Source: an uncultured bacterium
GTDB lineage: Bacteria; Omnitrophota; Omnitrophia; Omnitrophales; Aquincolibacteriaceae
Direction: 5' to 3'
Assembly: GCA_964524195.1 (NCBI GenBank)
Contig: CAZGCC010000001.1
Span: 1-48,209 of the forward strand
Length of the DNA: 48,209 nucleotides
A program made the translations under genes and the position numbers. Under the pieces are notes generated by a model, which saw only the letters and a list, made by a program, of their open reading frames with translations, was not told the origin of the DNA and made no database searches. Below are positions 12,689-42,823 of the stretch, in pieces (the stretch's first letter is position 1; every line of letters begins with the position of its first letter).

Positions 12689-12689
12689 T

Positions 12690-13619: not shown

Positions 13620-13620
13620 A

Positions 13621-16718: not shown

Positions 16719-16819
16719 ATCAGCGGTTCCCGTTTTTGACGCTTCGAGTATAATACCGTCGTTGTCAGGCTGGAGGACGGCCCTTTTTTACATACATCAA
16801 ACAGGAGCAAAAAAATCAA

Positions 16820-17977: not shown

Positions 17978-18051
17978 GGGCGTGACCTCATTCCCGCCAG
18001 CTTGACGGGGATCCGTTACGCCGTGTTAATGTTGAAAGGCTTCCGGGCCCC

Positions 18052-19413: not shown

Positions 19414-19484
19414 GAAAAACCGAATTTGAGATTTGATTTTTAAAGGTTGGGGGCGTATCCTTAAACTCTGAGAGGATCGTACGG

Positions 19485-19934: not shown

Positions 19935-19990
19935 AAAGCGCCCCGCGGTTTCCGTTCATTTTCTGTTTTCAACCGTAAAAAGGAGTCTTT

Positions 19991-21421
19991 ATGAAAAAAC
20001 GCGCGCTGTTCATGGTTTTATTTCTAATGGTCTTCACGCAAGTCTGCCACGCCGTCGTGACGGCGCCGGTCCAGCAAAGCACGAGCGAAGACCAGAAAGC
20101 GATCGAGGTCACGATCTACAACAGCAGCATCGGGCTCGTTAAGGATACGCGTCAGGTGACGCTTCCGACCGGACAAGGGGAGCTCCGCTTCATGGATGTG
20201 GCCTCCAGCATCAATCCGGTGACGGTTAGCGCGAGGTCGCTTAATTTTCCGAACGATTTTTCAGTGCTCGACCAGAATTACGAGTACGATCTGATGAGCG
20301 AGTCGCGGCTTCTCGATAAATTTGTCGGCCAGAAACTCAAGCTTCTCCGGTGGAATGAGGATCTTAGCAAGAAGGAAGAGGTGGAAGCGACGCTTCTCAG
20401 CAACAACGACGGGCAGATCTACCAGATCGGCGGCGAGATCTACCTCGGGTACCCCGGCATCAAAGTGGTCCCTTCGATCCCCGAAAACCTCATCGCCAAG
20501 CCAACGCTCACCTGGCTTTTTTCCAACAAGAACGCGAAAACGCACGAACTCGAGGTTTCCTATCTCACCGGGAATATCAGCTGGAAAGCGGATTATGTGG
20601 CCGTGTTGGCCGGGGACGACCGCTCTATGGATCTTTCCGGATGGGTCACGATCGACAATCAAAGTGGGGCCATGTACAAAGACGCTCGCCTGAAACTTGT
20701 CGCCGGAGATGTCAACCGCGTGGAAGCTCCCATGCTGATGCGAAAAGCCGTGCTTAGCGAGATGATGATGGATACGGCCGGCGCTCCCCAGTTCCAGGAA
20801 AAGGCGTTTTTTGAGTATCACATCTATGACCTGCAGCGCAAGACCACGATCAAGGATAAGCAGACCAAACAGATCAGCCTGTTGGAAGCCTCAGGCGTTC
20901 AAGCCAAAAAGGAGTTTCTGGTCTATGGGTCGTCGAATTATTATTTTTATGCCATGCCGGGGCAGAAACAAAAGCAGGATGTGAATGTGTTCGTGGAATT
21001 CAAGAATTCCCAGGCCAACCATGCCGGGATGCCGCTTCCTCAGGGAACGGTCCGGATGTATAAAAAGGATACGGACGACAGCCTTCAATTCATCGGAGAA
21101 GATAATATCCAGCACACACCCAAGGATGAAACGGTACGACTCAAGATCGGCAAAGCCTTCGATGTGGTGGCCGAGCGCGTTCAGACGGACTACAAGCAGA
21201 TCTCCAACCGCATGCATGAAAGTGAATGGGAAGTCACGATCCGGAACCACAAGACCGAAGCGGTCGTGGTCGGCATCCTCGAGCCGCTTTATTCGGACTG
21301 GAAAGTCCTGACGAGCACGCATGAATACAAAAAAGTGGATGCAGCCACCCTGCGCTTTGATGTTCCCGTGGGAAAAGATCAGGAAGTAGTCGTCCGCTAT
21401 CGCGTTCAGGTGAAGTCCTGA
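19991..21421 (+). CDS. Secreted DUF4139/DUF4140 (MuiA-like) protein
   Basis: Signal peptide. VTIYNSSIGLVKDTR.V.L..G...L.F.DV.S.I.P.TV at the N-terminus and WEVTIRNHK.EAV.V at the C-terminus. Confidence 0.6.
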   Translation: MKKRALFMVLFLMVFTQVCHAVVTAPVQQSTSEDQKAIEVTIYNSSIGLVKDTRQVTLPTGQGELRFMDVASSINPVTVSARSLNFPNDFSVLDQNYEYDLMSESRLLDKFVGQKLKLLRWNEDLSKKEEVEATLLSNNDGQIYQIGGEIYLGYPGIKVVPSIPENLIAKPTLTWLFSNKNAKTHELEVSYLTGNISWKADYVAVLAGDDRSMDLSGWVTIDNQSGAMYKDARLKLVAGDVNRVEAPMLMRKAVLSEMMMDTAGAPQFQEKAFFEYHIYDLQRKTTIKDKQTKQISLLEASGVQAKKEFLVYGSSNYYFYAMPGQKQKQDVNVFVEFKNSQANHAGMPLPQGTVRMYKKDTDDSLQFIGEDNIQHTPKDETVRLKIGKAFDVVAERVQTDYKQISNRMHESEWEVTIRNHKTEAVVVGILEPLYSDWKVLTSTHEYKKVDAATLRFDVPVGKDQEVVVRYRVQVKS

Positions 21422-23013: not shown

Positions 23014-24786
23014 TCAGGCCGGGAAAAAAACGGAGAATCGCGAGCCTTGACCGGGGGTGCTTTGGCAGGAAGCATGGCCGCCGTGAGCTTCCATGATGTG
23101 CTTGACGATCGCAAGTCCCAATCCCGTGCCTCCGAGTTCCTTCGACCGCGCTTTATCCACACGGAAGAACCGTTCAAAGATCCGCTCCCGGACCTCTTCC
23201 GGGATGCCGGCGCCCGCATCCTCGATCGTGACCGTGACTCCCGAGGGGCTTTGACTCGCCGAAAGAACGATCCTTCCTTCCGGTTTATTGAATTTGATCG
23301 CGTTGTCGATGAGATTCATCAAAACCTGATGGACTTTATCCCTGTCTCCGGAGAGGAGAATAGGTTTTCCGGAGAGGAGATTCTCGACCGTGATCTTTTT
23401 TTCACGGATCTGCGTCTTGAGCTTTTCCAGGATGGTCAATAATTCCGGAGAAAGATCGATCGCTTCCTTCCTTAAGGGCGCAACGCCTTGTTCGATCTCA
23501 CCGAGCGTCAGGATGTCTTCGACCAGGCGGCCCAGACGGTCTGTTTCCTCCGAAATGATCTTGAGGAACCTTTCGCTTGTCGGGGCGTCCTTGAGCGCGC
23601 CGCCCAGGAGGGTTTCGATAAAGCCCTTGATCGAGGTGAGGGGAGTACGAAGTTCGTGGGAGACATTCGCCACGAATTCCTTCCGCATATTCTCGAGCCG
23701 GCGGAGTTCCGTCATGTCATGAAACACCAGGATGCCGCCGATCGACCGGACATGGGCATCGAGAACGATGACATTTGCATGAAGTGTTTTTTTTATGTTT
23801 CCCGAAAGCTGGATCTCGACGGCGGTGGTTTTCTGCTCTTTGAAGGCGCGGTCCACGATCCCCTCAAGCTGGGGATGGCGCGTGATCTCGATCAGGCCTT
23901 TTCCCTGCGCCTCAGGAACCGCGAAGCCAAAGATATTTTCCGCGGCCGGATTTGCCGTCACCAGCTGTTTCCGCCGGTCTATCGCGATCACGCCTTCCTT
24001 CATATGACCTAAAATGACCGAGATCTTGCCTTTTTCGGTCTCGAGATCCTCGATCCTGGAGGCCAGGGAGGAAGCCATTTGGTTCATGGTCTCAGCGAGC
24101 ATCTTGAGCTCATCCTGCCCGTCCATCAGGATCTTTTCAGACCAGTCTTCACGGGCATACCGTTCGGCGATCGAAGTGATGCGGCGAATGCGCTTTGTGA
24201 GACGATCGCTGAAGAAAATCCCGGCACCAAGAACGATCAGGATGCCCAGGAAGGCCGTGAGCATCACGGTCCGTCGGACCGAGTCCAGGATCTCATTGAC
24301 ATGCGTCACCGGCATCGCCGCGCGAACAACTCCGAGAACTTTTCCGCTCTCTGTTATGGGGACCGCGAGATAAAGCATTTTGGCTTTAATGGTCATGCTG
24401 TAACGGAGGCTCATGCCCGTTTCTTTCCTGAGAGCTGCCGCAATTTCGGGGCGGGTCGCGTGATTATCCATTTTTGCGAGAGCTTCGTCAGTTTCACTGG
24501 AGTCGGCAAGGATCATGCCCTCGGGATCGACGACCGTAATGCGCAGGCCGGTTTCTTCCGCGATCTTCCGGATCTCGGACCGGAGCCGGGGGGTATCCCT
24601 CAAGAGAGGGTTTGCGATCTCACGGATCAGGACCGACTGCCGTACAAGAGAGCTCTGAAGCTGCTGAAGGTCCCTTTTCTGGAGGACCGTAGAAAGCGTC
24701 CAGTCCGTCACCAGCAGGACGAGGATAAAGATGACGCCGTAGAGCACGAGGAGCCGCTTGGCAAAACCGATCTTGGAGAAGCTCAT
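23014..24786 (-). CDS. phoR: Sensor histidine kinase, PhoR-like (TM, about 150 aa extracytoplasmic domain, TM, HAMP, PAS, HisKA, HATPase)
   Basis: FVANVSHELRTPLTSIKGF, the DRDKV.QVL.NL..NA pattern, GTGLGLAIVKHI and GQGSRFSVFFP. ATG 24786 lies 1 nt after the regulator's stop, with an alternative ATG at 24798. Confidence 0.75.
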   Translation of the reverse strand: MSFSKIGFAKRLLVLYGVIFILVLLVTDWTLSTVLQKRDLQQLQSSLVRQSVLIREIANPLLRDTPRLRSEIRKIAEETGLRITVVDPEGMILADSSETDEALAKMDNHATRPEIAAALRKETGMSLRYSMTIKAKMLYLAVPITESGKVLGVVRAAMPVTHVNEILDSVRRTVMLTAFLGILIVLGAGIFFSDRLTKRIRRITSIAERYAREDWSEKILMDGQDELKMLAETMNQMASSLASRIEDLETEKGKISVILGHMKEGVIAIDRRKQLVTANPAAENIFGFAVPEAQGKGLIEITRHPQLEGIVDRAFKEQKTTAVEIQLSGNIKKTLHANVIVLDAHVRSIGGILVFHDMTELRRLENMRKEFVANVSHELRTPLTSIKGFIETLLGGALKDAPTSERFLKIISEETDRLGRLVEDILTLGEIEQGVAPLRKEAIDLSPELLTILEKLKTQIREKKITVENLLSGKPILLSGDRDKVHQVLMNLIDNAIKFNKPEGRIVLSASQSPSGVTVTIEDAGAGIPEEVRERIFERFFRVDKARSKELGGTGLGLAIVKHIMEAHGGHASCQSTPGQGSRFSVFFPA

Positions 24787-24787
24787 T

Positions 24788-25477
24788 TCAGGCTCCATCG
24801 AAGCGGTAGCCGACACTTTTAATCGTGACGATCCGCTCCGCTTCTTTTCCGAGTTTTTTCCGCAACTGCCCGACATGCATGTCGACTGTCCGCGTTTCGA
24901 TATTCACGGAATTCTCATAACCCCAAACTTTTGATAAAAGGACTTCGCGGGTCAAGACCCGCTCTTTGGAGCCCATAAGGACGCGCAAAAGCTCGAATTC
25001 TTTCGCCGTGATCTCGACGGATCTTCCTTTAAGGCGCAACTCATGTTTGGTCACATCCAGCTCGATCGTTCCGGACCGCAAAACCTGCTCCGGGGATCTT
25101 TCCTGCGACCGGCGGAGCACGGCTTTGACGCGCGCCACAAGTTCCCGGGGGCTGAAGGGTTTGGTGATGTAATCGTCGGCGCCAAGCTCAAGGCCGACGA
25201 CCCTGTCGGACTCCGTGCCTTTCGCAGTAAGCATGATGATGGGGGTAAGCCGTGTTTTCTCGTTTTGGCGAAGGGTTTTGCAGATCTCAAGGCCATTCAT
25301 TTCCGGGAGCATGAGGTCCAGGACCACCAAAGCGGGTCTTTCCCGCAGGGCGGTTTCAAGCCCGGAGCTGCCTTTTGTGGCCGTAAGGACGCGAAAACCT
25401 TCCTGCTCGAGATTGTATTTTACAAGCTCGAGGATATTTTTTTCATCTTCTACAACAAGGACGGTTTCGCTCGCCAT
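24788..25477 (-). CDS. phoB: OmpR/PhoB-family response regulator
   Basis: VLVVEDEKNI, the DLMLP..NG pattern, P.IMLTAKG.E.DRV.GLELGADDYITKPFS.RELVARVKAVLRR and a winged-helix C-terminus ...TVKSVGYRF. Confidence 0.8.
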   Translation of the reverse strand: MASETVLVVEDEKNILELVKYNLEQEGFRVLTATKGSSGLETALRERPALVVLDLMLPEMNGLEICKTLRQNEKTRLTPIIMLTAKGTESDRVVGLELGADDYITKPFSPRELVARVKAVLRRSQERSPEQVLRSGTIELDVTKHELRLKGRSVEITAKEFELLRVLMGSKERVLTREVLLSKVWGYENSVNIETRTVDMHVGQLRKKLGKEAERIVTIKSVGYRFDGA

Positions 25478-25733: not shown

Positions 25734-25795
25734 CTAAGCGTGATCAAAATATATTTCGCTCTGTTTTCTGTGAACGCTTTTTTAGGGTGAGGGCT

Positions 25796-28700
25796 ATGCG
25801 GATAAAGCCGGGACTTTGCCTTGCGAGGTCTTTTCAAAAGATTTTTTTAAGAGGCGTTGCTCTTGCGACGCTGAAGTGTTTCGTTGTCACCAGCCTTGCT
25901 CTGGGGATTTCTCCTGAAGCGATCGCCGCAAGCTGGAGTAGTCCGCTTGCTCTCGTAAGCTCCTTGCCCTTTTCCGGGATCCCAAAAGAAATGGGAAAAC
26001 TTGACGGTGTTTTTGCGCCCCCGGTTGCAAACCGGTCCGTTTTCTTTTTGCACATCAAAGACGCCCATGCCTCGATGGAGGCCCAGAGGAATATCAACCG
26101 GATCCTTACAAGGTTGCAGCAAAGAAAGCAACTAGACCTTGTTTTAATAGAAGGCGCCGCGGGACCTCTCACCCCAGGTCGTTTGGATGTGTTTGATGAC
26201 GCGAAAAGGAATGACGCGTACAAGAAAGATCTCTTAAGTGCGGGCTTGTTAAACGGCGCAGCCTATTTTGCCGCTGGCCAAAAAAATGGCCTGGCTCATG
26301 GGTTGGAAGATTCCGCAGCGTATTTTGAGAATCTCAAAATCTTTCGCCAGATCGCCGCCTCGCGCGTTCTTAACGAGAAATTTTTTAACGCGATCGAAGT
26401 CGCGCTTTTCAACAGATCAAAGAACATTCTTAAGATGGAAGTGTTCGCGTTTCTTAAGGAGTGGAAGAGGCATCATCAAAATACATTATCCTGGGATCGG
26501 TACCTTTCGTTCCTGATCCGGAGTGCCGCGAAGTTCCTGGCTCTCGACCTTCGGGATTACCGCACGCAGGTCTTGTGGCCTCACTTGGTTCGTTATCACC
26601 GACTGGAGATCTTTTCTGAGCAGATCCGTTCCGATGCCGTTCAAAAAGAATACCGGAAGCTTGTCCAACGACTCGAAAAGGTCCGTGAGCCGGCCCTGGA
26701 AGAGACTTTGGCGCTGTTGTCTGCTACGGTGGAAAGCCCGGCAGCCCTTATCCGGGAAACGCCCGATTTTCGAAAATATGTGGAAGTGCTTGTAGAGGCT
26801 TGCTCTCGCGAAAGGATCCTGCTGCAACAGTTTCCGAACCTCGTTCGTTATCTGGCTTTCCGGATCTTTCGCTCCGAGATCGAACCCGAAGAATTGCTTC
26901 TCGAGGTGGGGCGGCTGGAAGATGCCCTTTTCGAAAAACTGTTCAAGGAAGAAAAGTCCCGGAATTTTATAGCGGCCTACCGCGACTTTTTTCTTCTCAA
27001 GCGGGCTTTTGCGCTGGAGCTTGACCGGGCCGAATCCAAACGCTTTGAAATCATGGATGTTTCAAAGAGGGTTCGGCTGCTTTCAAAGATCGCCCCAGGG
27101 CATGATCTGCAAATAGAAAATTTGATCCGCGGGGCGGATCTCGTGAAGCGGTTCTACAAGGCGGCCCAAAAACGCGACGGCGCCTTTGCGGAGCAGCTAA
27201 GAAAAGCCCTGGAAGGAGCGCAGGTTTTCCCGGATAGGCCCTTTTTCATTGTGCTTGTCACCGGGGGATATCATGCCGAGAGTCTCGAAAACTGGCTTCG
27301 TACCGAAAAACTTCCGTTCGCCAGCATTCAGCCGTTGTTTAAAGACGAGCCTAATAAAGAACGGTATGAAAACCTTCTTAGGGGCGATTACAGCGACTTT
27401 GATGCTCTTGCGACTCCGCAGGGCTCTATTCTCCCGGATGCGATCGCCGAAAAACTCATGGGAAAAGAGGCCCTCACAGCGTTTCGTGGAGCCGAGGCGC
27501 GTTTAGCGGCCAGGCAAACCCTTGGATCCGGAACATCCGGGGACCGACCCTTTCGGAGACCAGATGAAAATGTTTCGATCTTGCAGGATTCCGTTCGTTC
27601 TGAATCTGGAAAATCGACCTCCGGGAGAGATTTAACGATCGACAAATTCAAGGAGATCGCTGAAAAATGGCTTCGCCTTTTCAAAATCGAACAGATGTCC
27701 CCGGAGGAAATTCTCTTAGGCGAAAAAGAGCTTTCTGTAAAACTTTCTTTTGCCTCTGGGGCTGAGGGCTCCAATGAGCTCGATGCGTCACACCAGGCGT
27801 TAGAAATGATCCAGGAAGAAGCGGAAGCTTTTTTCTCTGGCTACTACGGACAGATCCACAGCAGTTCTTTGGAGCCCAACAAGGGGACGAAGGACCTCTC
27901 CTGGGTTCAACTCACGCTTCACCGGCGATCCGAGACTAGGGCTCTAGTGAAAGGCCTTGCCCGTTTGCTCATAGCTTTTGCGTTGGCGGGGACGATAAGC
28001 GGCTGTTCAACTTTGAGCCATGAAGCATTAAAAGAACAAATTCGCCAGGCGGAGCAGTATACGCTCCCTCAGAGGACGGTGGCGGTTCCAGCCTCGGTCC
28101 GGGTGAATGAGAAAAATCTTCTCGAAGCAATCCTTCTTAATGACCCCCAAGTCCGCCAGGCCGGGCTGAGGATTGCGATCCGCGAGACCGAAAAAGGGCG
28201 TCTCAAAGGAAGTTTTTCTTTGGAAACGCATTTTTCCTTGGTGGATGGGAAGCCTGTTTTTAGCGGAGGCGTCAGGGGGAGGGCCCCTTATCTTGGAGAA
28301 GTGGGGCTTCTGGGTCTTGGCGCGGGAAGCGTGGCAAGTCTGGCGTTGGAGTTGACGGGAGCGCTCGGTAGTTTTATTTCCGGGGAGCCTCTCTTGGCGA
28401 ACGACCTTGCCCAAAAACTTATCGAAGCGGCCCAGTTGCATCACCAAGATGTTATTGGAGAGCGTTACCTGGAATATGCTCGAATTGCCTTGGAGGTCAA
28501 GACGCTCCAGGATCAGCAGGCTCTGGCTGAGGCGACGGTCGCAGCCCTGAAGCATTCCTTGCAAATATCGCTTCAAAAAAGAGAAAGTTCCGAGCAGGAT
28601 CGCGCTCGGATCGAAACGCTATTGGATGAATGGAAAATGCGCTCCAATGATCTCGGGGCGGCTTTCCGTGAGAAGAGCTCCCGGTTGCTCGATCTTTATA

Positions 28701-31700
28701 TTCCGGAAGCTGCGGGAGAGAGCCGCTGGGGAGTCGATTTCTCCTACGCTGCCATGCCTCGGAACTGGAAAGTGACCCCCGCCATGACTCAAGATCTTGT
28801 AAATCGTGCAACTCAAAGGACAGGATCTCAATTGCCTTTGAATCGCGAATTGGCCGCGGCCTACAAAGCGCGCGAAGCGTCCATTGTAACCATGCTCCTT
28901 TCAAAAGCCCGTGACCGTTTCAGCCTGAGCATCGGAGGCCTTTTCCATGCGGACGATCTGGGAACGCCGCCATCCATGGATGATGACGCGAAAGGGGATT
29001 TCGATACGAATGCGGACAAAATAGTGGACCGGAGGACCGAAGACAAAAATTCGGTAAGAACCGGCTTTCGAAAAACTTTTGGCGGCGAAAGCGCCGCGGA
29101 TGTTCAGATGGCTTCTCATGAAGTTGAGATGAACGACAGTCTTCTTCAGGAGGTGGATCGCCGTGTGAGGCTGGAGATCGCCGAGCTGCTTTCCCGGATC
29201 GAACAAAAAAACAAAGAGATCGGGATCCTGGAACAAGCGGTCAGCAGAGATCGCGCGCTTTTGGAGAAAGCCCGAAAGATCTCTTTTGGCGGACAAACTT
29301 TATATCTTGAGGATCGTTTGTTCCCTCAGATCGACGCGATCGGGAAAAACGGAATCGCGCTTTTAAAGGCGCAGCAGGAACTGACCGTGGCCATTAAGCG
29401 CTTGGAAGTTCTTTCGGGGACCTTAGGCGGATTTTCATGGGGTCAGGCGAAGCGCTCAGAGGTTCGAAGCGCGGCATTTTCTTCTGCCGCGCAGCTGTTA
29501 CTGTTTAAAGGTTTTGAGAGCGCCGCGCTTGCTGTCCGGTCAGCTTCCGATTCTCGCCGGAGCGAATTTAGTCTTGAGCGGGATCTGGATAAAGCCTGGT
29601 CCCATTTGATTAAATTGCGGGCGGGTTTCGAATCAGAATTCTCGGGAGAGAAAGGTGCTCTCCATAGCCAGCATGTTTTCGGAAAGGCGAATGACCGGTT
29701 GCGTTGGGATATCGACAATGGGGTCTGTTTGACGGAAGAAGAACATAGGCGTCTTGCCCACGGAGGCCAGACAGACAGAGCCAAATTCTGGGACTGGGCG
29801 ATCCGGCGCATGTCTCCCGAAACGCTCGAACATTTACGGGACGCAATGTACGAACCGGAAAAGCCGGTTGACAGGAGAATTCTGCTCGCTCAATTCCGAA
29901 AAGAAATAGAAGCTCAAAAAAGACGTCTGAAAGAATCCGGGACTGTTGAGCTGTTGACAAAGGGGGGGCGTTCGGAAATACGAGGAAGTTTTTCGGCCAA
30001 ACAAAACGGTCCAAAGGGATCTTTTCCCTGGCGCTCGATGTTTGTTAAGGCGGTGATCGCGCTTTTCCTGGTGATCGGTTCTTTGCTTCCGTCATCAGCA
30101 TTGGCTGGTCAGGCGGAACCAGCAATGCATGCGACCCGCATGGTTCGGTCGGGGGCGTCAGGTTTTGGCGCGGCAGCGTCGTCGCTGGTTGTCGCCGGAT
30201 CCCAGGAAGCAGGCAAAAATTCCTTTGATGTGTTTGTTGAGGAAACGCTCAGAAAGATCCCGAACGATTCGGACCGGCCGTATTTGAAAGGCTATGCGCA
30301 AGGGCTTCGGGATATTTTGGATATCACCACTCCCGAAGGCCTTGAGCAAGCAAAAAGCAGTTTCGCGGAAAGAGCGGATATCTTTATGCCGGTTCCCCGA
30401 TGGTCTGATCCCGAATTGCTTCAGCAAGTTTCAAGAAGGCTGGAAGGGTTGTTGAGAAAAATCCCAAAAGAAAAAAGACCCGAGGTAATCCGGGAAATAG
30501 AAAATGCGAACATCGGTGATGAAATTCCGGTAACCGTCATAAAAAGCATCCGTCGCCATCACCATAAATCGTCATTTCCTGTTTTTAAAAAAACCGAAGC
30601 GCAAGAATCCATTCGCGTTACCCGAGAGCTTAAGGAAACCGTAGAAACAAGACAAATGATCGAAGACAGGATCAGTTCCCAAAGAGCTCAAATCGTTTCT
30701 GGACGGGCGCCTGCACTATCGGGAAGCGGAGTGGACACCGTTCCCCAGTGGAAGCCCGGCGAAGTTGTCATGCCGCCCACGGAATGGCCTGATTCTCCGG
30801 AAGTCACTGAATTGGACGGAGCGCTGGCTGAGTTTGACGGTTTTGTCATGCAGCTTCTTTACAAGATCCCCGATGCCGCCCGAAGAACGCAGCTTGTTCA
30901 GTATGCGGAAGGCCTGAAAGCCATGATCGTAAATCCGTCTTCTCTGGAACACGCCAAAATGCAGTTTTCCAAAAAAGTCGCACTCGACGGTATTTCAGAA
31001 GGCCTGGGGGCGATCGCCGCGGGCGGTCCTCTGGCGGCAGGAGCGGCGCTCGTGGAGGCTCCGGTTGTGGCTGCCCCTGAACAAATAATAATACAGCCAA
31101 CCATCTCCGGAGCGGAAACGGTTCCTCCAGCAAATATTTCTCCCGTGATGGCCATTCTTTTGCCGGAAGGTCGTTCCGGAGCTCAAGCGGAAAGTTCCAG
31201 TACCGCCCTTGAGATCTTAAGAGATTTTGCGGATGCTGCGCCTCCAGCGGCGGCGAAGTCCCAAGAAACCTTGGCGGACGATGAGGCCATGCTTCCGGAG
31301 GCATCCGAAGAAATATCAGTTTCTCTGGAGCCCCCAAGCATTCCAGGGCCTGCGCCCGTGATAGATAGCGCAGTTTCCAGGACTCAAAAAATTTCCGAGC
31401 CTGAACGGACCTCGACTCAAACAGGGCCCGTTCTTCCCGCCGTTTCCCATGGGCCGCAAGGTGTGATTTATGAATCAGAACGACCAGCCAAGTCCACGCC
31501 GGTTTTTTGGGATATGCAAGCGCCTTTCCCCGGAAAAACTCAGCATCTGGTGCGGGAAGGCGATGTGGTGAGACCAGGAGATGTTCAGGCGGAAATACAA
31601 GATCCTGAGCAGCGGCATGAAATACAAGGCTTAAAGGCGGCGATCGCAGGTATTGACCGGCAAATCCAAGGAAAAGGCAGTGTTCTGGGGCTGGATGAAA

Positions 31701-34700
31701 ATATTCGCTTGCGGTTTGAACGGGAAGAATTGGCCCGCAGACTTCGGCAGCTTGAGTATCAAGAAAGCCTGAGCGTCATTAAAGCTGGCCGGCCCGGAAG
31801 GATCGTGGAAATTCGCCGCGGCGATATTAATGCGGGAGGGATGGTGGTTCGTGCCGTTGCTTTGGATGCCGGCGAAGTGAGCTATTGGGTGCCGCGGGAG
31901 TATAGCGATTTTGATTATCCCGAATTAGGCTTAACAAACGGAACACCGCTTCGGGTTGTCGGCTATCGCATCGATGATATTGACCTCAATAGCAGCCAGA
32001 TACTTTTGACAGTCGCGTTTGTCGGCAAGGACGAAATACCAGCGGATGCTCGATACAAACTGACGCTGGTTAAAAACCCCTCTCAAGTTACTGCCCAATC
32101 CGAAGAGGCATCAGGCCATTTCTTTCATGCCCGAGTTCCTTCGAGGGAAACGGCAGCCATTTCCGTTGAAAAAGCCGACAATATCCCAGGAGCTCGTGCT
32201 CGGCCATCGGTTCCTGAAGGCAGTTTTGTTTCGGCGGGCCAGGGGGTAGGTATGGCGGATGCTCTGGATTACCTGCAATCTCAAAGGGATCCGGCGAAGA
32301 AGTTGGTAGGCCATGCTGACGAATTGGCACGGGTAAACCAACAGGAAATCCAGCTGCTTCCTGACGATGAAGTGCGTCAAATCCAGAAGGATGCGAGACT
32401 TCAATTAGCGGATCTTGAAGGTACCAGCCCCCAGCTTATTTTAAAAGCGCCTATTTCAGGCATCGCAACAGGTCTTTCGGACCTTGAGGGCGAGGTCGTC
32501 ATTCCAGGTAAAGTTACACGGGCTAAAGTCACCAGTACCAGGGTTTTTCTGGGAAGCGAGAGAGCTTATGAAGGAAATCTTGAGCTTAATGACGACTATT
32601 TGATCTCAGTGCCTCAGGAAAGCGTTCGAGAGGGAGATCCGGTTCTTGTTTCAACGCCCGCAAGGCGTCCGCTCGTGGGGAAAGTAATTAAAATCGTCCC
32701 GCTTGCAAACCGCAGCGTATGGCTTAAGGGACAAGAAGCGCTGATAATCGAGGTCAATGACCCAGAAATGTATTTGGGAGACAGAATGCCGGTGCGGCTG
32801 GATTTTGATCCACAAGTCATCGCGGCGGCCAAGGATGCAGCAGCAAATCCTGACGGGAATGCCCCCGTTTTAGCCGACTTTAAGGATGATTTGCCGGCGC
32901 CTGCGGCTTATGCGGTCCTTCAGAGCCCCGAAGACGAATTAAGTCTCGGGAAAATATGGCGTTTGACCCGCCACGAGGGGAACAGCCTTCAGAAGGTCGG
33001 CATGTGGAGATATTTCTTGGGGACAGCGGTCGGTTGGGCATTCCTTGGTAAGCTTGTCTGGGCGGGTTCGGGGAAGATCCTGATCTCGCTGGCGGCGGGC
33101 CTGGCGGCCTTGACGCTTTGGAACACCTTTTCGAATCTGTGGAGGCGGTTTTTCCCCAAAGAGATCGAAGATGAATCCAAGGATCTCGGCTCTGATATCC
33201 GGCGTCTTGCGCGAAGCCTGGAGATGGACAGTGCCAGCCTTTTCGGGAAAGAGGAAGAGGCCGAAGAGATCCTCCACGATATCATAGCGGCTTTGCATAG
33301 CTGGAATCAGCTCCTGCAGGAAGAGAGCCTTACTTCTGCCGACCTTTCAACGATGATGACGAAAGCCCAAGAGCTGGCCGGTAACAAGCGGCTCATGTAT
33401 TCCAAGAAACATTCCCAGAACATGGGCTATTTTAAGGAGGATGCCGCCGATGATTTCGTCCGGATCCATGAGATCATCGCCCGTTTAGCCATTTTGAGCG
33501 CCGCCAAAGCCTCGTTCGAGCTTAAGGTCAGGCCTTCCCGCGGTGCCGGGCTTGTCGAGGAAGAGAAGCTCCTGGATTTTCAGGAAAAAATGGAATATTT
33601 TGCCGAAGGACTCAATAATGCGTCCCAGGTCGGTTATAAGCTGTCGGCGATCGCGAATCCCACAGATCATTATCCTCCCAAAGTGATGCGGAACGGAAGG
33701 GCTCTGACCCTTTCCCATTTGTTCCAATGGATCCATAACCGATGGATTTTTTATACCTTCCCGGCGCTTCGGTTCCTGAATTTCTACGCCGTGGCGGTAT
33801 TCTTTCACAAAGGCGGGCGGCATGTACCGTTCCTCTGGGGAGCGGCGGATTACTATCATCACTATTACAATGCCATGAAAAAAGCGGGTGTCGATCTCGC
33901 CTCCACACCTTCGGATTTTGAGAAAGGATTCAAGGATGCTTTTTATAAAGAGGTGGATATTGAACACTGGCTACCCAGCAAAAAGCTGCATTATTATGGG
34001 CGCTATTACGCCTTGGTAGGATGGGTCATTTTTGCGATCCTGCCATGGTTTTTATCCCCGCTTCTCCTGTATCTTTCCGGGGTCGGGCTCATCGTGGGAA
34101 CGAGCATTCTCATGATCTGGAAAACGGTGCCGCTGTTTTACACATTTTTCCGTTACATGCTGCCTGTTGTAATGGGAAGCGAAAGCAAACACTACCGATC
34201 TAACCTGAAAGATATTGTCCGTCTTCGGCGCGAACGCTTGCGAAAACAGGCGGGTCTGTTGAGCGGGAAAAAGGAATCGCCCTTGCCGCCCCGGGGTTTA
34301 CCGTCTTCGGCTTCTGCATCTCAGGTTACAGAACCCGGCACCATTGCTTTGAAGGCCATGCAGCAAGCTTTGCTTCAGGCCGCAGAAAATGCCGAAGTGG
34401 AGATCATTGCGGTCCTGCCTCCCCGGAATGGAAACAATGACCGGGATATAGATCTTTTTGAGAAAAGGGTCCGTCACGATGAGGCATTAGCGCGCTTGGG
34501 GATTCGCACGGTCGAAAGCGATGGGAAGATTGCCGGGGAGGCGGGGCTCTTCTTCGCGGCCCGGTCCATCTCGGATGAGAATAAACCTTATAAGATCTAC
34601 TGGTATCCCAAGGGTTTTCCGAGCGAAGGGGTTCGTCTTGCTTCTGCGTTAGCGGTATTCAAATTTAATTTAGCAGAAGCTTTGCGTATGATCGATGCTT

Positions 34701-36976
34701 ACCGGAAACTCGGAGATTCCTTTGCGACGGTTGTTTTTCCGGGAGGGGAAATGGATACCAGCGTTACGGAAGCCACTGAAAATGGCAGCAATTTTGTGGT
34801 TCGAAGTCGTTACGAAAGTTTAAAAGAGATCCGCTCCAGGAACCTTCCCGTTCTTTTGGGGCATAACGGGACCACTCGCTTGAGAGTGGATCAGGTGATC
34901 TATAGCCCCGACGAACTGAAGGGGGCGATTAGCAAGGCAGATATTTCCATGGGAGCCCGGCGGTTTGATCTTTCAAATGATGAATTGAAGCAGATCCCGG
35001 TGCGGTCTGGTCCTCTCGCGATCGTGGCCAAAGACAGGGAAACTCAGGAAAAGATCGAGCAAGTCCTGGAGGTCTTTCAGCGGGGTACCGAAGAGCTTTC
35101 GGCGCGGTATGCCCCTTTTATGACCGATCTTTTGCAGGATGTTTTCAGTCCGGTGGCTGAATTTTTCCGTCAGTTCAATCCTGCGTCTCCCGAAACCCCA
35201 AGTATGAACCACCTGACCCAGCGGACGCTAGGGATGCCGGACGGCCGGATCGTCAATCCCTGGAACAAGTTGCACGGTAAGATCGCAACGCGGCTCCTGA
35301 CACTTTCGGCATCCGGCCGCAAAGCGCCTCTTCATGTCGAGGCGTTTATTCCGCCGTTCGTCGATTCCTTCCATCTTGAAAGTTCGAATTATGAAGGTAT
35401 TCTCAGCCAGCTTGTAAATCTTCACAAAGACTTTCCGGAACTGGTCGACCCGGTGATTTTAGAACGCCTTAAAGAAAGCCGTAAACGCGCCGCTTCGAAA
35501 ATTCCAGAAATCCTGATCTTTGAGGACGATTCAGGAAAAAAGGTTTACGCCACCAAAGAGGAAGGATACCGTCGGAAATTACGGGCTCTCGAGGTGGCGG
35601 GACTTGTTACCAAGGACGGCAAATTGGTTTTGCAGCGGCGGAGCAATCAGTCGGCAACAAATCCCGGGCGCTTGGATGTTTCATTTGCGGGACATCGTCA
35701 GCAGCAGGATGTTTCTTCGGAAGCGGCCGCCAAGCGGGAATTTTTAGAAGAGCTTTTGGCTGGCAGTCCGCTTTCCGTTCCTCTGAAGTTCGAAAAACTG
35801 AAAGATCATCGCTACGAGATCCCTCATGAGACACCGGGGAAAGGGCTGTTTCGCCGCAAGCATTCCGAGATCTTTCAGGTCCGTCTGGACGGTGAGTTCC
35901 AGTGGGGCGATTTCAAGCCGGCAGATAATGCCGTCGAAGTGGTTCCCATCGATCCTGGCGAGATCCCGCAGCTTTTAGCCGAGAAATCCGGCCAGTTCAC
36001 CCCACGCGCTTTTTCGCTACTTAAGGAAGTTTATCAGCAGCCGGATCTTGGTTTGGCGGGAATCCCTGCTAATCCTTCTTCTGTTCCTCCGCGCTCCGAA
36101 GTGAGAAACCCCAAAGAGGAAATCGGCCCGACAGAGGAGCTCTCTGATCTTGAAGAAATGAAAATCTTCCTACCCGAGACATCCGAAGCGATCCGTGTTC
36201 TGACGGCTATCCTTGTTGCTGAAAGGATCCTTGCCATTCGCGATGTTGGCTTTCTTTCCAGGCTGGAAGCTTCGCTCGAAGATACCGGCGCGATCTCTGA
36301 ACGCGTTGCGCCTGCTCTTGCGGCGCTATCCGGCGCCCATGATGTTTCATCAGAAACATTAAAAACGCGATTGGAGTTGCTGCTTCGCCAGAAACAAAGC
36401 CAAACCGCTACGGATGAGCGCATTGTTTTTCTGGATGCCGGGACAGTCCCTGCGGAATATTTCAAGAAGCTTTTGAGGTCTCAAGTTCCCGTAGTGGTCT
36501 TGTTCGATCGTCACCACCAAGCGCTTTATGAGCAGGCCGCCAAAGAACAATTGCGTGCCCAGGCGGGGAGCCATGTCATTTTAGTTTATACGCCGGATGG
36601 GGTGAGCTCTTTTGTCAAACGGGCGCTCCAGTCAGGCGATGCGCTTCTTACCGCTTCTCCGCGTCTGAACGCTGTTTTGACCCGCTTTCGAAGTCACGGG
36701 AAGGCGGATGACATTGCCCTTATCACGAGAGGGCGCGCTGAAAGCCAGAAGGTCGAATCCGATTATGTTGGCCACCGCTATTATTACGATGACGAAACAC
36801 TTCGGCTTGACCCGGAATTGATCTTTTACTCCTTGCAGCTTCTCCTGCGCAGCCCGGAGCTTTTCCGTTACGGGAAGGGACGGAATGCTCAGGATGCGGT
36901 CTCCCTGATAGGGCTGGTGCTCCAGCAGCTTGCAGCTTCCTTGAGAGGGGAGCAGGCAGCCAAAGTCGCAGCGTAA
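25796..36976 (+). CDS. Giant multi-module envelope protein (about 3,726 aa), function unknown
   Basis: One uninterrupted frame. ATG 25796 is preceded by AGGGTGAGGG, and GTG 25787 is an alternative start. It contains recognisable OMF-like, MFP-like, polytopic-membrane and Nudix-like segments (see the sub-features and findings). Confidence 0.85.
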   Translation: MRIKPGLCLARSFQKIFLRGVALATLKCFVVTSLALGISPEAIAASWSSPLALVSSLPFSGIPKEMGKLDGVFAPPVANRSVFFLHIKDAHASMEAQRNINRILTRLQQRKQLDLVLIEGAAGPLTPGRLDVFDDAKRNDAYKKDLLSAGLLNGAAYFAAGQKNGLAHGLEDSAAYFENLKIFRQIAASRVLNEKFFNAIEVALFNRSKNILKMEVFAFLKEWKRHHQNTLSWDRYLSFLIRSAAKFLALDLRDYRTQVLWPHLVRYHRLEIFSEQIRSDAVQKEYRKLVQRLEKVREPALEETLALLSATVESPAALIRETPDFRKYVEVLVEACSRERILLQQFPNLVRYLAFRIFRSEIEPEELLLEVGRLEDALFEKLFKEEKSRNFIAAYRDFFLLKRAFALELDRAESKRFEIMDVSKRVRLLSKIAPGHDLQIENLIRGADLVKRFYKAAQKRDGAFAEQLRKALEGAQVFPDRPFFIVLVTGGYHAESLENWLRTEKLPFASIQPLFKDEPNKERYENLLRGDYSDFDALATPQGSILPDAIAEKLMGKEALTAFRGAEARLAARQTLGSGTSGDRPFRRPDENVSILQDSVRSESGKSTSGRDLTIDKFKEIAEKWLRLFKIEQMSPEEILLGEKELSVKLSFASGAEGSNELDASHQALEMIQEEAEAFFSGYYGQIHSSSLEPNKGTKDLSWVQLTLHRRSETRALVKGLARLLIAFALAGTISGCSTLSHEALKEQIRQAEQYTLPQRTVAVPASVRVNEKNLLEAILLNDPQVRQAGLRIAIRETEKGRLKGSFSLETHFSLVDGKPVFSGGVRGRAPYLGEVGLLGLGAGSVASLALELTGALGSFISGEPLLANDLAQKLIEAAQLHHQDVIGERYLEYARIALEVKTLQDQQALAEATVAALKHSLQISLQKRESSEQDRARIETLLDEWKMRSNDLGAAFREKSSRLLDLYIPEAAGESRWGVDFSYAAMPRNWKVTPAMTQDLVNRATQRTGSQLPLNRELAAAYKAREASIVTMLLSKARDRFSLSIGGLFHADDLGTPPSMDDDAKGDFDTNADKIVDRRTEDKNSVRTGFRKTFGGESAADVQMASHEVEMNDSLLQEVDRRVRLEIAELLSRIEQKNKEIGILEQAVSRDRALLEKARKISFGGQTLYLEDRLFPQIDAIGKNGIALLKAQQELTVAIKRLEVLSGTLGGFSWGQAKRSEVRSAAFSSAAQLLLFKGFESAALAVRSASDSRRSEFSLERDLDKAWSHLIKLRAGFESEFSGEKGALHSQHVFGKANDRLRWDIDNGVCLTEEEHRRLAHGGQTDRAKFWDWAIRRMSPETLEHLRDAMYEPEKPVDRRILLAQFRKEIEAQKRRLKESGTVELLTKGGRSEIRGSFSAKQNGPKGSFPWRSMFVKAVIALFLVIGSLLPSSALAGQAEPAMHATRMVRSGASGFGAAASSLVVAGSQEAGKNSFDVFVEETLRKIPNDSDRPYLKGYAQGLRDILDITTPEGLEQAKSSFAERADIFMPVPRWSDPELLQQVSRRLEGLLRKIPKEKRPEVIREIENANIGDEIPVTVIKSIRRHHHKSSFPVFKKTEAQESIRVTRELKETVETRQMIEDRISSQRAQIVSGRAPALSGSGVDTVPQWKPGEVVMPPTEWPDSPEVTELDGALAEFDGFVMQLLYKIPDAARRTQLVQYAEGLKAMIVNPSSLEHAKMQFSKKVALDGISEGLGAIAAGGPLAAGAALVEAPVVAAPEQIIIQPTISGAETVPPANISPVMAILLPEGRSGAQAESSSTALEILRDFADAAPPAAAKSQETLADDEAMLPEASEEISVSLEPPSIPGPAPVIDSAVSRTQKISEPERTSTQTGPVLPAVSHGPQGVIYESERPAKSTPVFWDMQAPFPGKTQHLVREGDVVRPGDVQAEIQDPEQRHEIQGLKAAIAGIDRQIQGKGSVLGLDENIRLRFEREELARRLRQLEYQESLSVIKAGRPGRIVEIRRGDINAGGMVVRAVALDAGEVSYWVPREYSDFDYPELGLTNGTPLRVVGYRIDDIDLNSSQILLTVAFVGKDEIPADARYKLTLVKNPSQVTAQSEEASGHFFHARVPSRETAAISVEKADNIPGARARPSVPEGSFVSAGQGVGMADALDYLQSQRDPAKKLVGHADELARVNQQEIQLLPDDEVRQIQKDARLQLADLEGTSPQLILKAPISGIATGLSDLEGEVVIPGKVTRAKVTSTRVFLGSERAYEGNLELNDDYLISVPQESVREGDPVLVSTPARRPLVGKVIKIVPLANRSVWLKGQEALIIEVNDPEMYLGDRMPVRLDFDPQVIAAAKDAAANPDGNAPVLADFKDDLPAPAAYAVLQSPEDELSLGKIWRLTRHEGNSLQKVGMWRYFLGTAVGWAFLGKLVWAGSGKILISLAAGLAALTLWNTFSNLWRRFFPKEIEDESKDLGSDIRRLARSLEMDSASLFGKEEEAEEILHDIIAALHSWNQLLQEESLTSADLSTMMTKAQELAGNKRLMYSKKHSQNMGYFKEDAADDFVRIHEIIARLAILSAAKASFELKVRPSRGAGLVEEEKLLDFQEKMEYFAEGLNNASQVGYKLSAIANPTDHYPPKVMRNGRALTLSHLFQWIHNRWIFYTFPALRFLNFYAVAVFFHKGGRHVPFLWGAADYYHHYYNAMKKAGVDLASTPSDFEKGFKDAFYKEVDIEHWLPSKKLHYYGRYYALVGWVIFAILPWFLSPLLLYLSGVGLIVGTSILMIWKTVPLFYTFFRYMLPVVMGSESKHYRSNLKDIVRLRRERLRKQAGLLSGKKESPLPPRGLPSSASASQVTEPGTIALKAMQQALLQAAENAEVEIIAVLPPRNGNNDRDIDLFEKRVRHDEALARLGIRTVESDGKIAGEAGLFFAARSISDENKPYKIYWYPKGFPSEGVRLASALAVFKFNLAEALRMIDAYRKLGDSFATVVFPGGEMDTSVTEATENGSNFVVRSRYESLKEIRSRNLPVLLGHNGTTRLRVDQVIYSPDELKGAISKADISMGARRFDLSNDELKQIPVRSGPLAIVAKDRETQEKIEQVLEVFQRGTEELSARYAPFMTDLLQDVFSPVAEFFRQFNPASPETPSMNHLTQRTLGMPDGRIVNPWNKLHGKIATRLLTLSASGRKAPLHVEAFIPPFVDSFHLESSNYEGILSQLVNLHKDFPELVDPVILERLKESRKRAASKIPEILIFEDDSGKKVYATKEEGYRRKLRALEVAGLVTKDGKLVLQRRSNQSATNPGRLDVSFAGHRQQQDVSSEAAAKREFLEELLAGSPLSVPLKFEKLKDHRYEIPHETPGKGLFRRKHSEIFQVRLDGEFQWGDFKPADNAVEVVPIDPGEIPQLLAEKSGQFTPRAFSLLKEVYQQPDLGLAGIPANPSSVPPRSEVRNPKEEIGPTEELSDLEEMKIFLPETSEAIRVLTAILVAERILAIRDVGFLSRLEASLEDTGAISERVAPALAALSGAHDVSSETLKTRLELLLRQKQSQTATDERIVFLDAGTVPAEYFKKLLRSQVPVVVLFDRHHQALYEQAAKEQLRAQAGSHVILVYTPDGVSSFVKRALQSGDALLTASPRLNAVLTRFRSHGKADDIALITRGRAESQKVESDYVGHRYYYDDETLRLDPELIFYSLQLLLRSPELFRYGKGRNAQDAVSLIGLVLQQLAASLRGEQAAKVAA
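27941..29430 (+). other. Internal module: lipoprotein-type signal (lipobox LAGTISG-C, Cys codon 28004-28006) plus a TolC/NodT-like outer-membrane-factor region
   Basis: ALVKGLARLLIAFALAGTISGCS. About 475 aa follow, with two OMF-like half repeats (LLEAILLNDPQVRQAGLRIA...GSFSLETHFSL and NRELAAAYKAREAS...RFSLSIGGLF) and long helical stretches ending in ...AIKRLEVLSG. Confidence 0.55.
31500..32815 (+). other. Internal module: two tandem HlyD/membrane-fusion-protein-like units
   Basis: Unit 1: HLVREGDVVRPGDVQAEIQD, then coiled coil, then VIKAGRPGRIVEI..GD...GG.VV. Unit 2: VPEGSFVSAGQGVG, then coiled coil, then ILKAPISGIATG, VREGDPVLVS and GDRMPVRLDF. Confidence 0.55.
33002..34180 (+). other. Internal module: polytopic membrane block (about 6 hydrophobic helices) with Tyr/His-rich loops
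   Basis: WRYFLGTAVGWAFLGKLVWAGSGKILISLAAGLAALTLW, IFYTFPALRFLNFYAVAVFF and YYALVGWVIFAILPWFLSPLLLYLSGVGLIVGTSILMIWKTVPLFYTFFRYMLPVVMG. The loops carry ADYYHHYYN and LHYYGRYY. Confidence 0.6.
35590..35985 (+). other. Internal module: degenerate Nudix-fold domain
   Basis: VAGLVTKDGKLVLQRRSNQSATNPGRLDVSFAGHRQQQDVSSEAAAKREFLEELL follows the pattern KDGK.LLQ.RS..K...PG..D.S.GGH...GE....AA.RE..EE.G. The REFLEE core is kept, while the Gx5E spacing and the final Gly are altered. Confidence 0.5.
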
Positions 36977-37474: not shown

Positions 37475-37517
37475 TTTACAAATGCTTTACATGAGACCCC
37501 TCCGCAGGCGTTATAAT
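37475..37517 (+). promoter_or_regulatory. Pho-box-like repeat pair plus a consensus -10 upstream of the ROK-ppx-ppk1 operon
   Basis: TTTACAaatgcTTTACA with hexamer starts at 37475 and 37486. TATAAT at 37512 is 26 nt from the second hexamer start. No -35 match. Confidence 0.6.
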
Positions 37518-37547
37518 AAAAGCGTTATCTTGGAGAGCGGAGGGTTT

Positions 37548-38534
37548 ATGGCGAATAAAAAGAAGAAGTATATTTTGGGGATCGATCTAGGCGGGACCAA
37601 GGTTCTGATCGGGTTGCTCGATAAGAAGTTCAGGATCAGGAAAAGGGTCAAGCTGGAAATGGATGGCAACCGCGGGGAAAGGTTTTTCTTCAACAATCTT
37701 CTTGAGGGGATCGAGGAAGTGCTGGAGGAGACAGGGACCGGACTTAATAATATCTCCATGGCCGGCATCGGTTGTCCCGGCATTATCGATATCTACCGGG
37801 GGGTGGTTAAGGTTTCTTCCAATGTCTCTTTTTTCAAGAATTATCCTCTGGTTAAAAAGCTGAAAGCAAAATTAGGCATCCCTGTCTTTCTTGAAAACGA
37901 CGCGAATGCGGCGCTTTATGGCGAGCAGCAGTTCGGAGCCGCGCGAGGTTTCCGGCAGGTTGTGGGGGTTTTTCTTGGGACCGGGGTCGGAGGATCTCTC
38001 ATCCTGAACGGGCATCTTTACAGGGGCATCTCCGGAGGCGCTGGAGAGATCGGGCAAATGCTGGTGTCGATGCCGTCTTTTTCAAATTTCGAAGTTTCGC
38101 GCCAAAAAGTAGGCGCGCTTATAGGACGCAATGCCATCGCCTCCGAAGCCGGTTTTCTTTTGCTCAGGCAGAAATGCCCGCATCTCCTCGAAGAGATTGG
38201 ATACAATGTCAAAAAGATCCGCAGCGGAGCTCTCTCTCGCGCGATCAAGGCCGGCGATACTGCTCTCGAAAATCTGATTCGGAGCCGCGCCCGGTGGCTG
38301 GGGATCGCGCTGGCGAATGTAGTGAATGTCCTGAATCCGGAGCTGGTCGTTCTGGGGGGCGGGATGATGGAAGCCATGGGGAAGATCATTCTTCCTGAGG
38401 TTCGAAACACCATGGAGCTTTACACTCTGAAGCCGCTCATGCGCGATGTCCGGGTTGCAGCGTCCGCTCTTAAAGACGATGCGGTGATCATGGGCGCGGC
38501 AAAGCTGGTTTATGACCTTGCAAAGAGGTCTTGA
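37548..38534 (+). CDS. ROK-family sugar kinase (glucokinase-like) lacking the ROK zinc motif
   Basis: ILGIDLGGTKV, GIGCPG, ENDANAAL.GE and GGAGEIGQ. GGAGAGCGGAGGG Shine-Dalgarno before ATG 37548. Confidence 0.8.
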   Translation: MANKKKKYILGIDLGGTKVLIGLLDKKFRIRKRVKLEMDGNRGERFFFNNLLEGIEEVLEETGTGLNNISMAGIGCPGIIDIYRGVVKVSSNVSFFKNYPLVKKLKAKLGIPVFLENDANAALYGEQQFGAARGFRQVVGVFLGTGVGGSLILNGHLYRGISGGAGEIGQMLVSMPSFSNFEVSRQKVGALIGRNAIASEAGFLLLRQKCPHLLEEIGYNVKKIRSGALSRAIKAGDTALENLIRSRARWLGIALANVVNVLNPELVVLGGGMMEAMGKIILPEVRNTMELYTLKPLMRDVRVAASALKDDAVIMGAAKLVYDLAKRS

Positions 38535-38536
38535 AA

Positions 38537-40111: not shown

Positions 40112-40117
40112 GCGACC

Positions 40118-42717: not shown

Positions 42718-42823
42718 AAGAACCATCAACAAAAACTTTGGCTCATCCCGGAAGATTTGATTTCTCGAGGCGCAAAGATTACAATCAACCGTCAAAGAGT
42801 CGTGGCATAACACCAACCCAAGG

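Follow-up and report, generated by a model that had tools for sequence, protein, structure and literature searches.

Conserved giant multi-module gene of Omnitrophota embeds a predicted TolC-like module with its own lipoprotein signal and motif-marked module borders

The window analyzed here, a 48,209-nucleotide stretch of DNA from an uncultured bacterium of the phylum Omnitrophota, contains a giant open reading frame (ORF) that encodes several modules in a single chain (Table 1). One of these modules resembles the TolC-like outer-membrane factors (OMFs) and is preceded, deep inside the polypeptide, by a lipoprotein signal of its own. A preliminary description of this DNA had placed a NodT-like segment about 720 residues inside a larger ORF. 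Indeed, the segment (27941 to 29430) lies in frame within 25787 to 36976, with uniform coding periodicity. The GC order by codon position, GC1 > GC3 > GC2, is the same in every 250-codon bin of the giant ORF, and because this pattern is constant, the sequence codes in one frame over its full length. The probable start codon, ATG 25796, is the start called on a near-identical (99.9%) public contig, and the 3729-residue product has only 5 cysteines. What the preliminary description overlooked is the larger pattern, a conserved giant multi-module family with a delimiter motif. The more important result extends beyond the segment that it covered: a family of Omnitrophota giant precursors, with modules delimited by R-[SA]-E-x-R and equipped with export signals of their own.

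Bacterial lipoprotein and general secretory (Sec) signals are treated as strictly N-terminal. Residues 719 to 740 of the giant protein read ALVKGLARLLIAFALAGTISG-C, with the Cys740 codon at nucleotides 28004 to 28006. The earlier identification of a signal peptidase II (SPase II) signal in the middle of a polypeptide is borne out, as the stretch combines an n-region with two basic residues (K/R), a hydrophobic core of 11 residues, and a lipobox of canonical form (I-S-G-C740, within TISG-C740). A lipobox-type pattern occurs anywhere in merely 0.2 to 1.7% of shuffled giant proteins and is thus more than chance. Across ten aligned homologous modules, the hydrophobic core is kept in all ten and the Cys in nine; in the remaining lineage, an SPase I-type signal replaces the lipoprotein signal. 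The sequence [LV][LV]SG-C is near-invariant in the module alignment. An internal lipoprotein signal is conserved here ahead of a TolC-like module, over lineages with 22 to 41% identity.

To characterize the module that follows the signal, we modeled its ~480 residues with AlphaFold on a seven-sequence alignment, which gave a predicted local distance difference test score (pLDDT) of 65.5 and a predicted template modeling score (pTM) of 0.66. The model has helices at residues 156 to 218, 224 to 259, 389 to 452, and 466 to 497, the longest of ~60 residues, and strands at residues 94 to 121. In a Foldseek comparison with the PDB, the best 44 matches are all OMFs (among them OprM, ST50, TolC, OprJ, VceC, MtrE, OprN, CmeC, CusC, SilC, and one NodT protein), with E values of 4.8e-8 to 1e-2 over ~500 aligned columns and target-normalized TM-scores mostly of ~0.5 to 0.6 for the best matches; unrelated coiled coils appear beyond the OMFs only at E > 0.1. 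Without an alignment, AlphaFold gave only a poor model from the single sequence (pLDDT 47); its structural matches in Foldseek, at E > 0.01, were a mixture of OMFs and coiled coils. By the alignment-based model, the module is predicted to be an OMF (TolC-like) fold that is too divergent for the OEP and NodT families by their thresholds.

Sequence profiles see little of this fold. The OEP search that the preliminary description had proposed as a check fell just short: Pfam OEP (PF02321) matches the window module in one stretch, not the two repeats of the family, scoring 21.9 bits where the gathering cut-off is 22. Sub-threshold OEP matches occur in four of the seven aligned members (two are fragments), with a best E value of 5.8e-5. 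The NodT model (TIGR01845) does not match the window module, and the only NCBIfam match is TIGR01844 (TolC), at 13.4 bits against 225. Hence, the proposed OMF identity stands as a predicted TolC-like fold, but the labels "NodT-type" and "full" find no backing from sequence models. The module does share with NodT-type OMF lipoproteins a lipobox, [LVI][ASTVI][GAS]C, directly ahead of the mature part, though here the signal is internal. The preliminary description had made its claim depend on an OMF fold and on conservation of the Cys and hydrophobic stretch; the fold is predicted, and core and Cys are retained in 10 and 9 of the 10 modules, respectively, so that this check does not overturn the claim.

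We next consider how widely this arrangement is conserved. An exhaustive HMMER search of 1.84 billion representative proteins gave 355 matches at E <= 0.001, 150 of which were listed. Among the matches listed, the OMF-like module occurs only within long proteins and at similar depth: at residues 583 to 1092 of P0002 (2663 aa), 594 to 1097 of P0004 (2561 aa), and 631 to 1124 of P0012 (4000 aa). Several contig-truncated fragments also matched, and the homologs include a fragment of 100% identity. A scan of GTDB, at one genome per species and with an alignment of head domain plus OMF-like module as the query, yielded 48 loci, most of them from metagenome-assembled genomes (MAGs) named Candidatus Omnitrophota. 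In all nine related loci analyzed (L002, L005 to L011, and L014; eight are named Omnitrophota MAGs), one continuous ORF runs from the head domain through the motif and the signal into the OMF-like module. L008, L010, L014, and L002 contain complete single ORFs of 3249 to 4004 aa, and a scan of JGI contigs found the same layout in three more metagenome contigs. In every homolog whose contig reaches that far, the module lies ~580 to 720 residues into the giant ORF, and homologs are 22 to 41% identical to the window module. The comparison with orthologs suggested in the preliminary description revealed no separate gene, with no stand-alone copy among the matches listed or in the GTDB and JGI contig scans. 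Word-indexed protein searches, with the segment or with a 10-sequence alignment, came back empty even though homologs exist, indicating that they are insensitive to this family. A genome scan with exact 8-mers of the whole giant protein gave no match, and a protein look-up held no exact-match record of the window's own proteins.

The module borders are marked by a short motif. RSE[TVI]R occurs at residues 714, 1223, 1395, and 3436 of the giant protein, four copies against 0.15 expected, and none of 2000 shuffles reaches four. The first site precedes the lipoprotein signal, the second immediately follows the OMF-like module, the third precedes the third signal, and the fourth precedes the C-terminal 289 residues. 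Each copy is encoded by different codons, which points to a peptide-level feature under selection. Homologs carry R-[SA]-E-x-R at the same module borders, including equivalents of the fourth site at the same place in L008, L010, L014, and L002, and giant ORFs of related loci have up to seven copies each. In a set of 35 giant ORFs that all start with this head domain, we counted 69 copies against 5.4 expected from composition (~13-fold); V, L, or I predominates at position 4, and the flanks are small residues. A signal-like hydrophobic stretch follows the motif within 45 aa at 19 of 88 sites, compared with 3.6 ± 1.9 at random positions. The motif linkers have a pLDDT below 50 in the AlphaFold model and are predicted to be disordered.

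In module swaps among relatives, the exchanged stretch runs exactly from motif to motif. What separates the OMF-like module from the third signal is a module of 167 aa in the window, ~90 aa in L008 and L010, and 31 aa in L014. The same stretch holds a ~250-aa module with multiple transmembrane segments in L006, L007, and L009; in L002 and L006, such a module is joined by a further one of ~400 aa (HATPase in L002). A DNA-level origin of the motif, Shine-Dalgarno-like coding included, was considered and rejected, as there is no DNA repeat, the codons differ, and there are no Rfam or tRNA matches. The motif variant tends to be uniform within one protein, with RAEVR occurring five to seven times in L012, RSELR in L013 and L016, and RSE[TS]R in L025; this tendency suggests co-evolution with a lineage-specific recognition factor.

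Membrane topology bears directly on the state of the chain. Three signal-type segments (residues 18 to 49, 717 to 744, and 1412 to 1443) have positive N-flanks and neutral or acidic C-flanks, corresponding to an N-in/C-out orientation, and the charge and hydrophobicity of the giant protein revealed no oppositely oriented helix between them. The first, a Sec-type signal, is likewise present in P0004, P0006, and P0012. Under the positive-inside rule, by which the orientation of membrane segments follows flanking charge, an intact chain cannot satisfy all three signals, since all are N-in/C-out and no return helix intervenes. This incompatibility argues for a polyprotein. Further, the OMF-like module must be C-terminally free to leave the inner membrane, making a polyprotein the simplest model. 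The modules have export signals of their own and are exchangeable, one is equivalent to a stand-alone protein family, and a motif site is found at each border. The earlier view that the part upstream of the signal must be removed agrees with this model.

On balance, we therefore consider it somewhat probable that the segment is module 2 of a conserved Omnitrophota giant precursor acting as a polyprotein, or "fused operon," that is cut at the motifs. The precursor would comprise, in order, a head domain bearing a Sec signal, an OMF module that is TolC-like but divergent and has its own lipoprotein signal, a small module that is possibly HNH-like, a HlyD-like periplasmic adaptor module with a signal, membrane helices, a cytoplasmic NUDIX region, and a C-terminal module. 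A protease on the cytoplasmic side would cut at these R-[SA]-E-x-R linkers or immediately beside them. The freed OMF precursor, its signal now near the N terminus, would be exported independently, via Sec here and possibly by way of Tat-like RRRF signals in some relatives. Lgt would then acylate Cys740 and LspA would cleave. The product would be inserted in the outer membrane as a trimer, where it could dock with the HlyD-like module from the same ORF.

Alternatively, the giant protein could remain an intact multi-pass membrane protein, with the signals serving as transmembrane helices, the OMF-like region and small module in the cytoplasm between helices 2 and 3, and the motif as a structural or binding linker. 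An alternating topology of this kind would put both the HlyD-like module and the NUDIX region where they belong, the former outside and the latter inside, and giant proteins of Omnitrophota are generally taken as membrane-anchored single chains. However, with this topology the TolC-like fold and the conserved Cys of the lipobox would both face the wrong membrane side, with no explanation for the near-invariant [LV][LV]SG-C. Nor would it account for the exchange of modules exactly at motifs, and helix 2 would break the positive-inside rule; we regard an intact chain as unlikely. Processing by the membrane signal peptidases LepB and LspA alone, during co-translational insertion, is another option in which the motif would act as, e.g., a translocation pause or charge clamp. 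A cleavable-looking signal does stand ahead of each exported module (AIA/AS, ISG/C, and ALA/GQ), and a positive motif by the signals would help to keep the N-side cytoplasmic. Signal peptidases would not free the C terminus of the OMF-like module, though, nor could they deal with one N-in/C-out signal after another when no return helix lies between. Motifs also occur with no following signal (sites 2 and 4 of the window and 69 of 88 sites overall), and we consider such a scheme very unlikely.

Internal initiation is another way to give the signal an N terminus. The lipoprotein would be translated as a nested gene from a start at GTG 27947 (Met in relatives), with long and short forms made together. 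The preliminary description held that the module has no start codon of its own, and this needs amending: the V721 codon (nucleotides 27947 to 27949) is GTG, the equivalent position is Met in seven of nine homologs, and the third signal also begins with a Met (M1418). Yet no conserved Shine-Dalgarno-like sequence precedes the GTG in the window or its equivalents in homologs, whereas ordinary genes of the window have clear ones, and L006 and L014 have no start codon at this place (L014 has a TTG 9 nucleotides upstream). Moreover, no stop follows the module, so that a product begun here would keep everything downstream, including the next signal, and its C terminus would not be freed; the motif is also left unexplained. 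Internal initiation is thus a weaker alternative than the polyprotein, and improbable as the main explanation. Lastly, the genes could have been falsely joined by sequencing or assembly error, or the ORF could be a decaying pseudogene. A 99.9% identical contig (L004) has the ORF split by a 107-nucleotide deletion, and the contig of P0004 has it as two overlapping pieces, but both breaks lie elsewhere than the junction in question. Single ORFs of 3249 to 4004 aa span the same junctions in independent assemblies at 22 to 41% module identity, and codon statistics show no frame change. Because the layout is conserved over independent assemblies, an assembly artefact is excluded, and we give an erroneous or decaying ORF hardly any credence.

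Several observations weigh against a polyprotein with an OMF module. The OMF assignment hangs on a medium-confidence model from a seven-sequence alignment. Of the two beta segments in the preliminary description, GSFSLETHFSL is a predicted strand (model residues 94 to 107) within a beta hairpin, but the second hairpin is absent from the model and RFSLSIGGLF falls in a low-confidence loop. Neither phmmer nor a family profile retrieved an OMF from PDB sequences, and hhalign against four NodT OMFs (CusC, SilC, 6u94, and an Omnitrophota NodT OMF) gave E = 0.24, with the region in register. The cases of a signal following a motif come mostly from one subfamily and are not independent, and head-domain giant ORFs of Elusimicrobiota and Planctomycetia have no motif or loose matches only. 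We infer the cleavage, and no protease domain was recognized; in searches of Pfam, NCBIfam, and the PDB, the head domain resembled none of the known proteases. Finally, 8 of 10 sequences have a start codon where the signal begins, which allows for internal initiation.

A broader proposal, which we put forward tentatively and hold to be somewhat doubtful, is that R-[S/A]-E-x-R is a cleavage code used generally by Omnitrophota giant genes, which would encode entire envelope machines, here an OMF, an adaptor, and membrane parts, as single chains that are cut in the cytoplasm into pieces sorted by their own internal Sec, Tat, or lipoprotein signals. The cutting agent would possibly be the conserved head domain or an unlinked protease. 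If true, this code would make the giant ORFs the first cellular bacterial polyproteins with internal lipoprotein signals.

Comparison with known systems places these features in context. Like the OMFs TolC, OprM, and CusC (OEP PF02321; NodT TIGR01845), the module is predicted to have ~60-residue helices and a beta hairpin in a two-repeat layout; its mature length is ~480 aa, a candidate HlyD-like adaptor is encoded alongside, and, as in NodT-type OMFs, the lipobox Cys directly precedes the mature part. Unlike OMFs, the window module lies below every family sequence threshold, its signal is internal, ~720 residues in, and no stand-alone copy was found among the listed matches or in the GTDB and JGI scans. 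No RND, ABC, or MFS pump component was recognized in the giant ORF by domain-library scans, and membrane helices follow the HlyD-like module. In flavivirus polyproteins, the capsid is followed by a basic cleavage site on the cytoplasmic side, an internal signal, and prM, and signal peptidase cuts on the far side. A basic motif directly upstream of an internal signal resembles this capsid-prM junction, by analogy and not by relationship. In contrast to the viral case, the window gene is cellular and chromosomal, R-[SA]-E-x-R is not dibasic, and one internal signal is of the lipoprotein type (SPase II). Among bacterial precursors, the gingipains and HagA of Porphyromonas gingivalis are known to be split after Arg (or Lys) to give several functional domains; their processing takes place outside the cell, once the type IX system has exported them by way of one N-terminal signal. 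Unlike the window protein, these have no internal signal peptides, and a sequence relationship is not expected.

Within Omnitrophota, giant proteins have been proposed to be cleaved post-translationally into several products, citing C39 and S8 domains, with cleavage points stated to be unknown (West-Roberts et al. 2023, bioRxiv 10.1101/2023.11.21.568195); a general cleavage code, if true, would supply the points that this earlier work lacked. The "Archaeovorins" and dockerin-type giant genes of that study (10.1101/2023.11.21.568195) share with the window gene the phylum, very long membrane-associated ORFs, and mixed domains. They differ in exceeding 30,000 aa and in containing C39 or S8 domains, whereas the window protein has 3.7 thousand aa and another, unannotated head domain, and the study describes no OMF or HlyD modules, internal lipoprotein signals, or delimiter motif. 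A 2026 preprint surveying long Omnitrophota proteins (10.64898/2026.06.07.730766) discarded internal signal-peptide calls as artefacts. We found no description of an internal lipoprotein signal, a delimiter motif, or an Omnitrophota polyprotein in the searchable full-text literature. The signal and the border motif together offer a testable answer to whether giant ORFs are one protein or many, and where they are cut. If the polyprotein model is right, the motif would allow annotation and structure prediction to work with real protein units, obtained by computational division of the giant Omnitrophota ORFs. A cellular organism would then be using a virus-like gene-expression strategy, and sequence-based annotation would have overlooked an OMF/adaptor pair that is highly divergent.

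Table 1. Features of the giant ORF and the adjacent regulator gene, in window coordinates
Feature	Position (nt)	Strand	Remarks
PhoB-like response regulator	24788-25477	-	Divergently adjacent to the giant gene
Giant ORF, candidate multi-module precursor	25787-36976	+	3729 aa; probable start ATG 25796
N-terminal Sec-type signal	25841-25927	+	Residues 19-47, ...PEAIA/AS; hydrophobic peak, +3 N-flank
Head domain, family unknown	25934-27925	+	Residues 50-713; alignment A6, 27 sequences
Delimiter motif 1, RSETR	27926-27940	+	Residues 714-718; homologs have the motif at the same place
Internal lipoprotein signal peptide	27947-28006	+	V721-C740; K722/R726 n-region, LLIAFALAG core, lipobox TISG-C
OMF (TolC-like) module, predicted	28004-29452	+	Residues 740-1222; AlphaFold model and Foldseek against PDB
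Delimiter motif 2, RSEVR	29453-29467	+	Residues 1223-1227; R, E, and R nearly invariant at the C-terminal edge of the OMF-like module
Small module, possibly HNH-like	29468-29968	+	Residues 1228-1394; homologous to ~130-aa stand-alone proteins
Delimiter motif 3, RSEIR	29969-29983	+	Residues 1395-1399; before the third signal
Third signal peptide	30038-30106	+	M1418-A1440, MFVKAVIALFLVIGSLLPSSALA/GQ; by hydrophobicity and charge
Module 3	30110-32986	+	Residues 1442-2400; C-terminal half (from nt 31484) HlyD/membrane-fusion-protein-like
Membrane-spanning region	33014-34177	+	Hydrophobic segments at residues 2410-2449 and 2657-2797
NUDIX domain	35594-35953	+	Residues 3270-3389; 27.1 bits, cut-off 21.1
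Delimiter motif 4, RSEVR	36092-36106	+	Residues 3436-3440; followed by the 289-aa C-terminal module

The head domain starts the giant ORF at every related locus examined, most of them from Omnitrophota MAGs. Its invariant positions include I-x-D-A-H (89 to 96), a Q, E-G, and G-G-Y-H (491 to 498), the last being G-G-x-H over 27 diverse sequences. No match was found in Pfam, NCBIfam, or the PDB. Based on the H...E...H pattern, we considered a Tiki/TraB/ChaN-like hydrolase and set the idea aside as a hunch, as ChaN matches 1 of 27 members at E = 0.18. This unannotated family heads giant ORFs, often of > 3000 aa, in many Omnitrophota MAGs (loci L012 to L052). It also occurs in MAGs of Elusimicrobiota and "Planctomycetia," and several paralogs can be present per genome, as in STB_104 (L021, L022, and L025).

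The 167-aa module between motifs 2 and 3 is similar to a large family of stand-alone proteins of ~130 aa (mostly 89 to 263 aa), which account for most of the 150 matches listed of 355 (E <= 0.001) and align with query positions 556 to 690. HNH_2 matches one stand-alone member, P0081, at 22.5 bits. The window module contains an H...N...H-like pattern, HSQHVFGKANDRLRWDIDNGVCLTEEEHRRLAHGG, and may be a nuclease module. For module 3, HlyD_3 scores 27.8 and 24.6 bits (cut-off 22.2) in the homologs L008 and L010 and 14.6 bits in the window, and P0002 has a faint BSH_RND match. By eye, two stretches of module 3 look alike: ETLRKIPNDSDRPYLKGYAQGLRDIL...LEQAKSSF (~30230 to 30380, residues ~1480 to 1530) and QLLYKIPDAARRTQLVQYAEGLKAMI...LEHAKMQF (~30860 to 31010, residues ~1690 to 1740). 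Their likeness suggests a putative internal duplication; a self-BLAST for internal repeats returned the identity match only, leaving this pair unreported.

Some relatives have internal signals of another type. Twin-arginine-like signals (MNRRRFLAL...LVSGC, starting MNRRRF[LI]) precede the OMF-like modules of L007, L008, L009, L010, and L014. An unrelated giant ORF, L017, has RAEVR followed by a textbook twin-arginine translocation (Tat) signal, SRREMLKLAVGSALAGF, ~1540 residues in (residue 1536). A Tat-type signal on an OMF-like protein would be unusual in itself. Conventional efflux genes also occur in this group: L002 encodes, at 262 to 5680 (minus strand), beyond a two-component system beside the 4000-aa homolog P0012, an operon with a membrane fusion protein, a fused ABC transporter, an ABC-2 permease, and a stand-alone NodT-type OEP lipoprotein (MLAMLISGC...). 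Because this operon encodes such a lipoprotein, these organisms have ordinary OMFs too.

Two close relatives have interrupted ORFs. L004 (JGI 3300020048, Ga0207193_1003705) matches the window at 99.9% identity along 14 kb and lacks 107 nucleotides (window 29991 to 30097, L004 14196 to 14198) that encode exactly the third signal peptide (FSAKQ...LLPSS). The deletion introduces a stop right after RSEIRGS, splitting the giant ORF into one of 1398 aa and a second ORF, and single-nucleotide polymorphisms are denser just downstream. The deletion may be an artefact of assembly or a variant of the strain. On the P0004 contig (ENA ERZ1426631), the giant ORF is called as two genes, at 10001 to 17686 and 17676 to 20582 (2561 and 968 aa), which overlap by 11 nucleotides. 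This break lies within a module, away from the motifs, and may reflect either a frameshift error or a split that is real.

The gene neighborhood is also conserved. A divergent PhoB-like regulator lies beside the giant gene, both in the window and in each of the eight loci checked (the equivalent protein is 229 aa), and this response regulator is the probable regulator of the giant gene. The window also holds phoR, a ROK kinase, ppx, ppk1, ppk2, a porin, and pstS downstream (23014 to 24876, minus strand, and 37482 to 47843), and one relative has pstSCAB-phoU upstream. The giant gene looks like a member of a phosphate starvation regulon.

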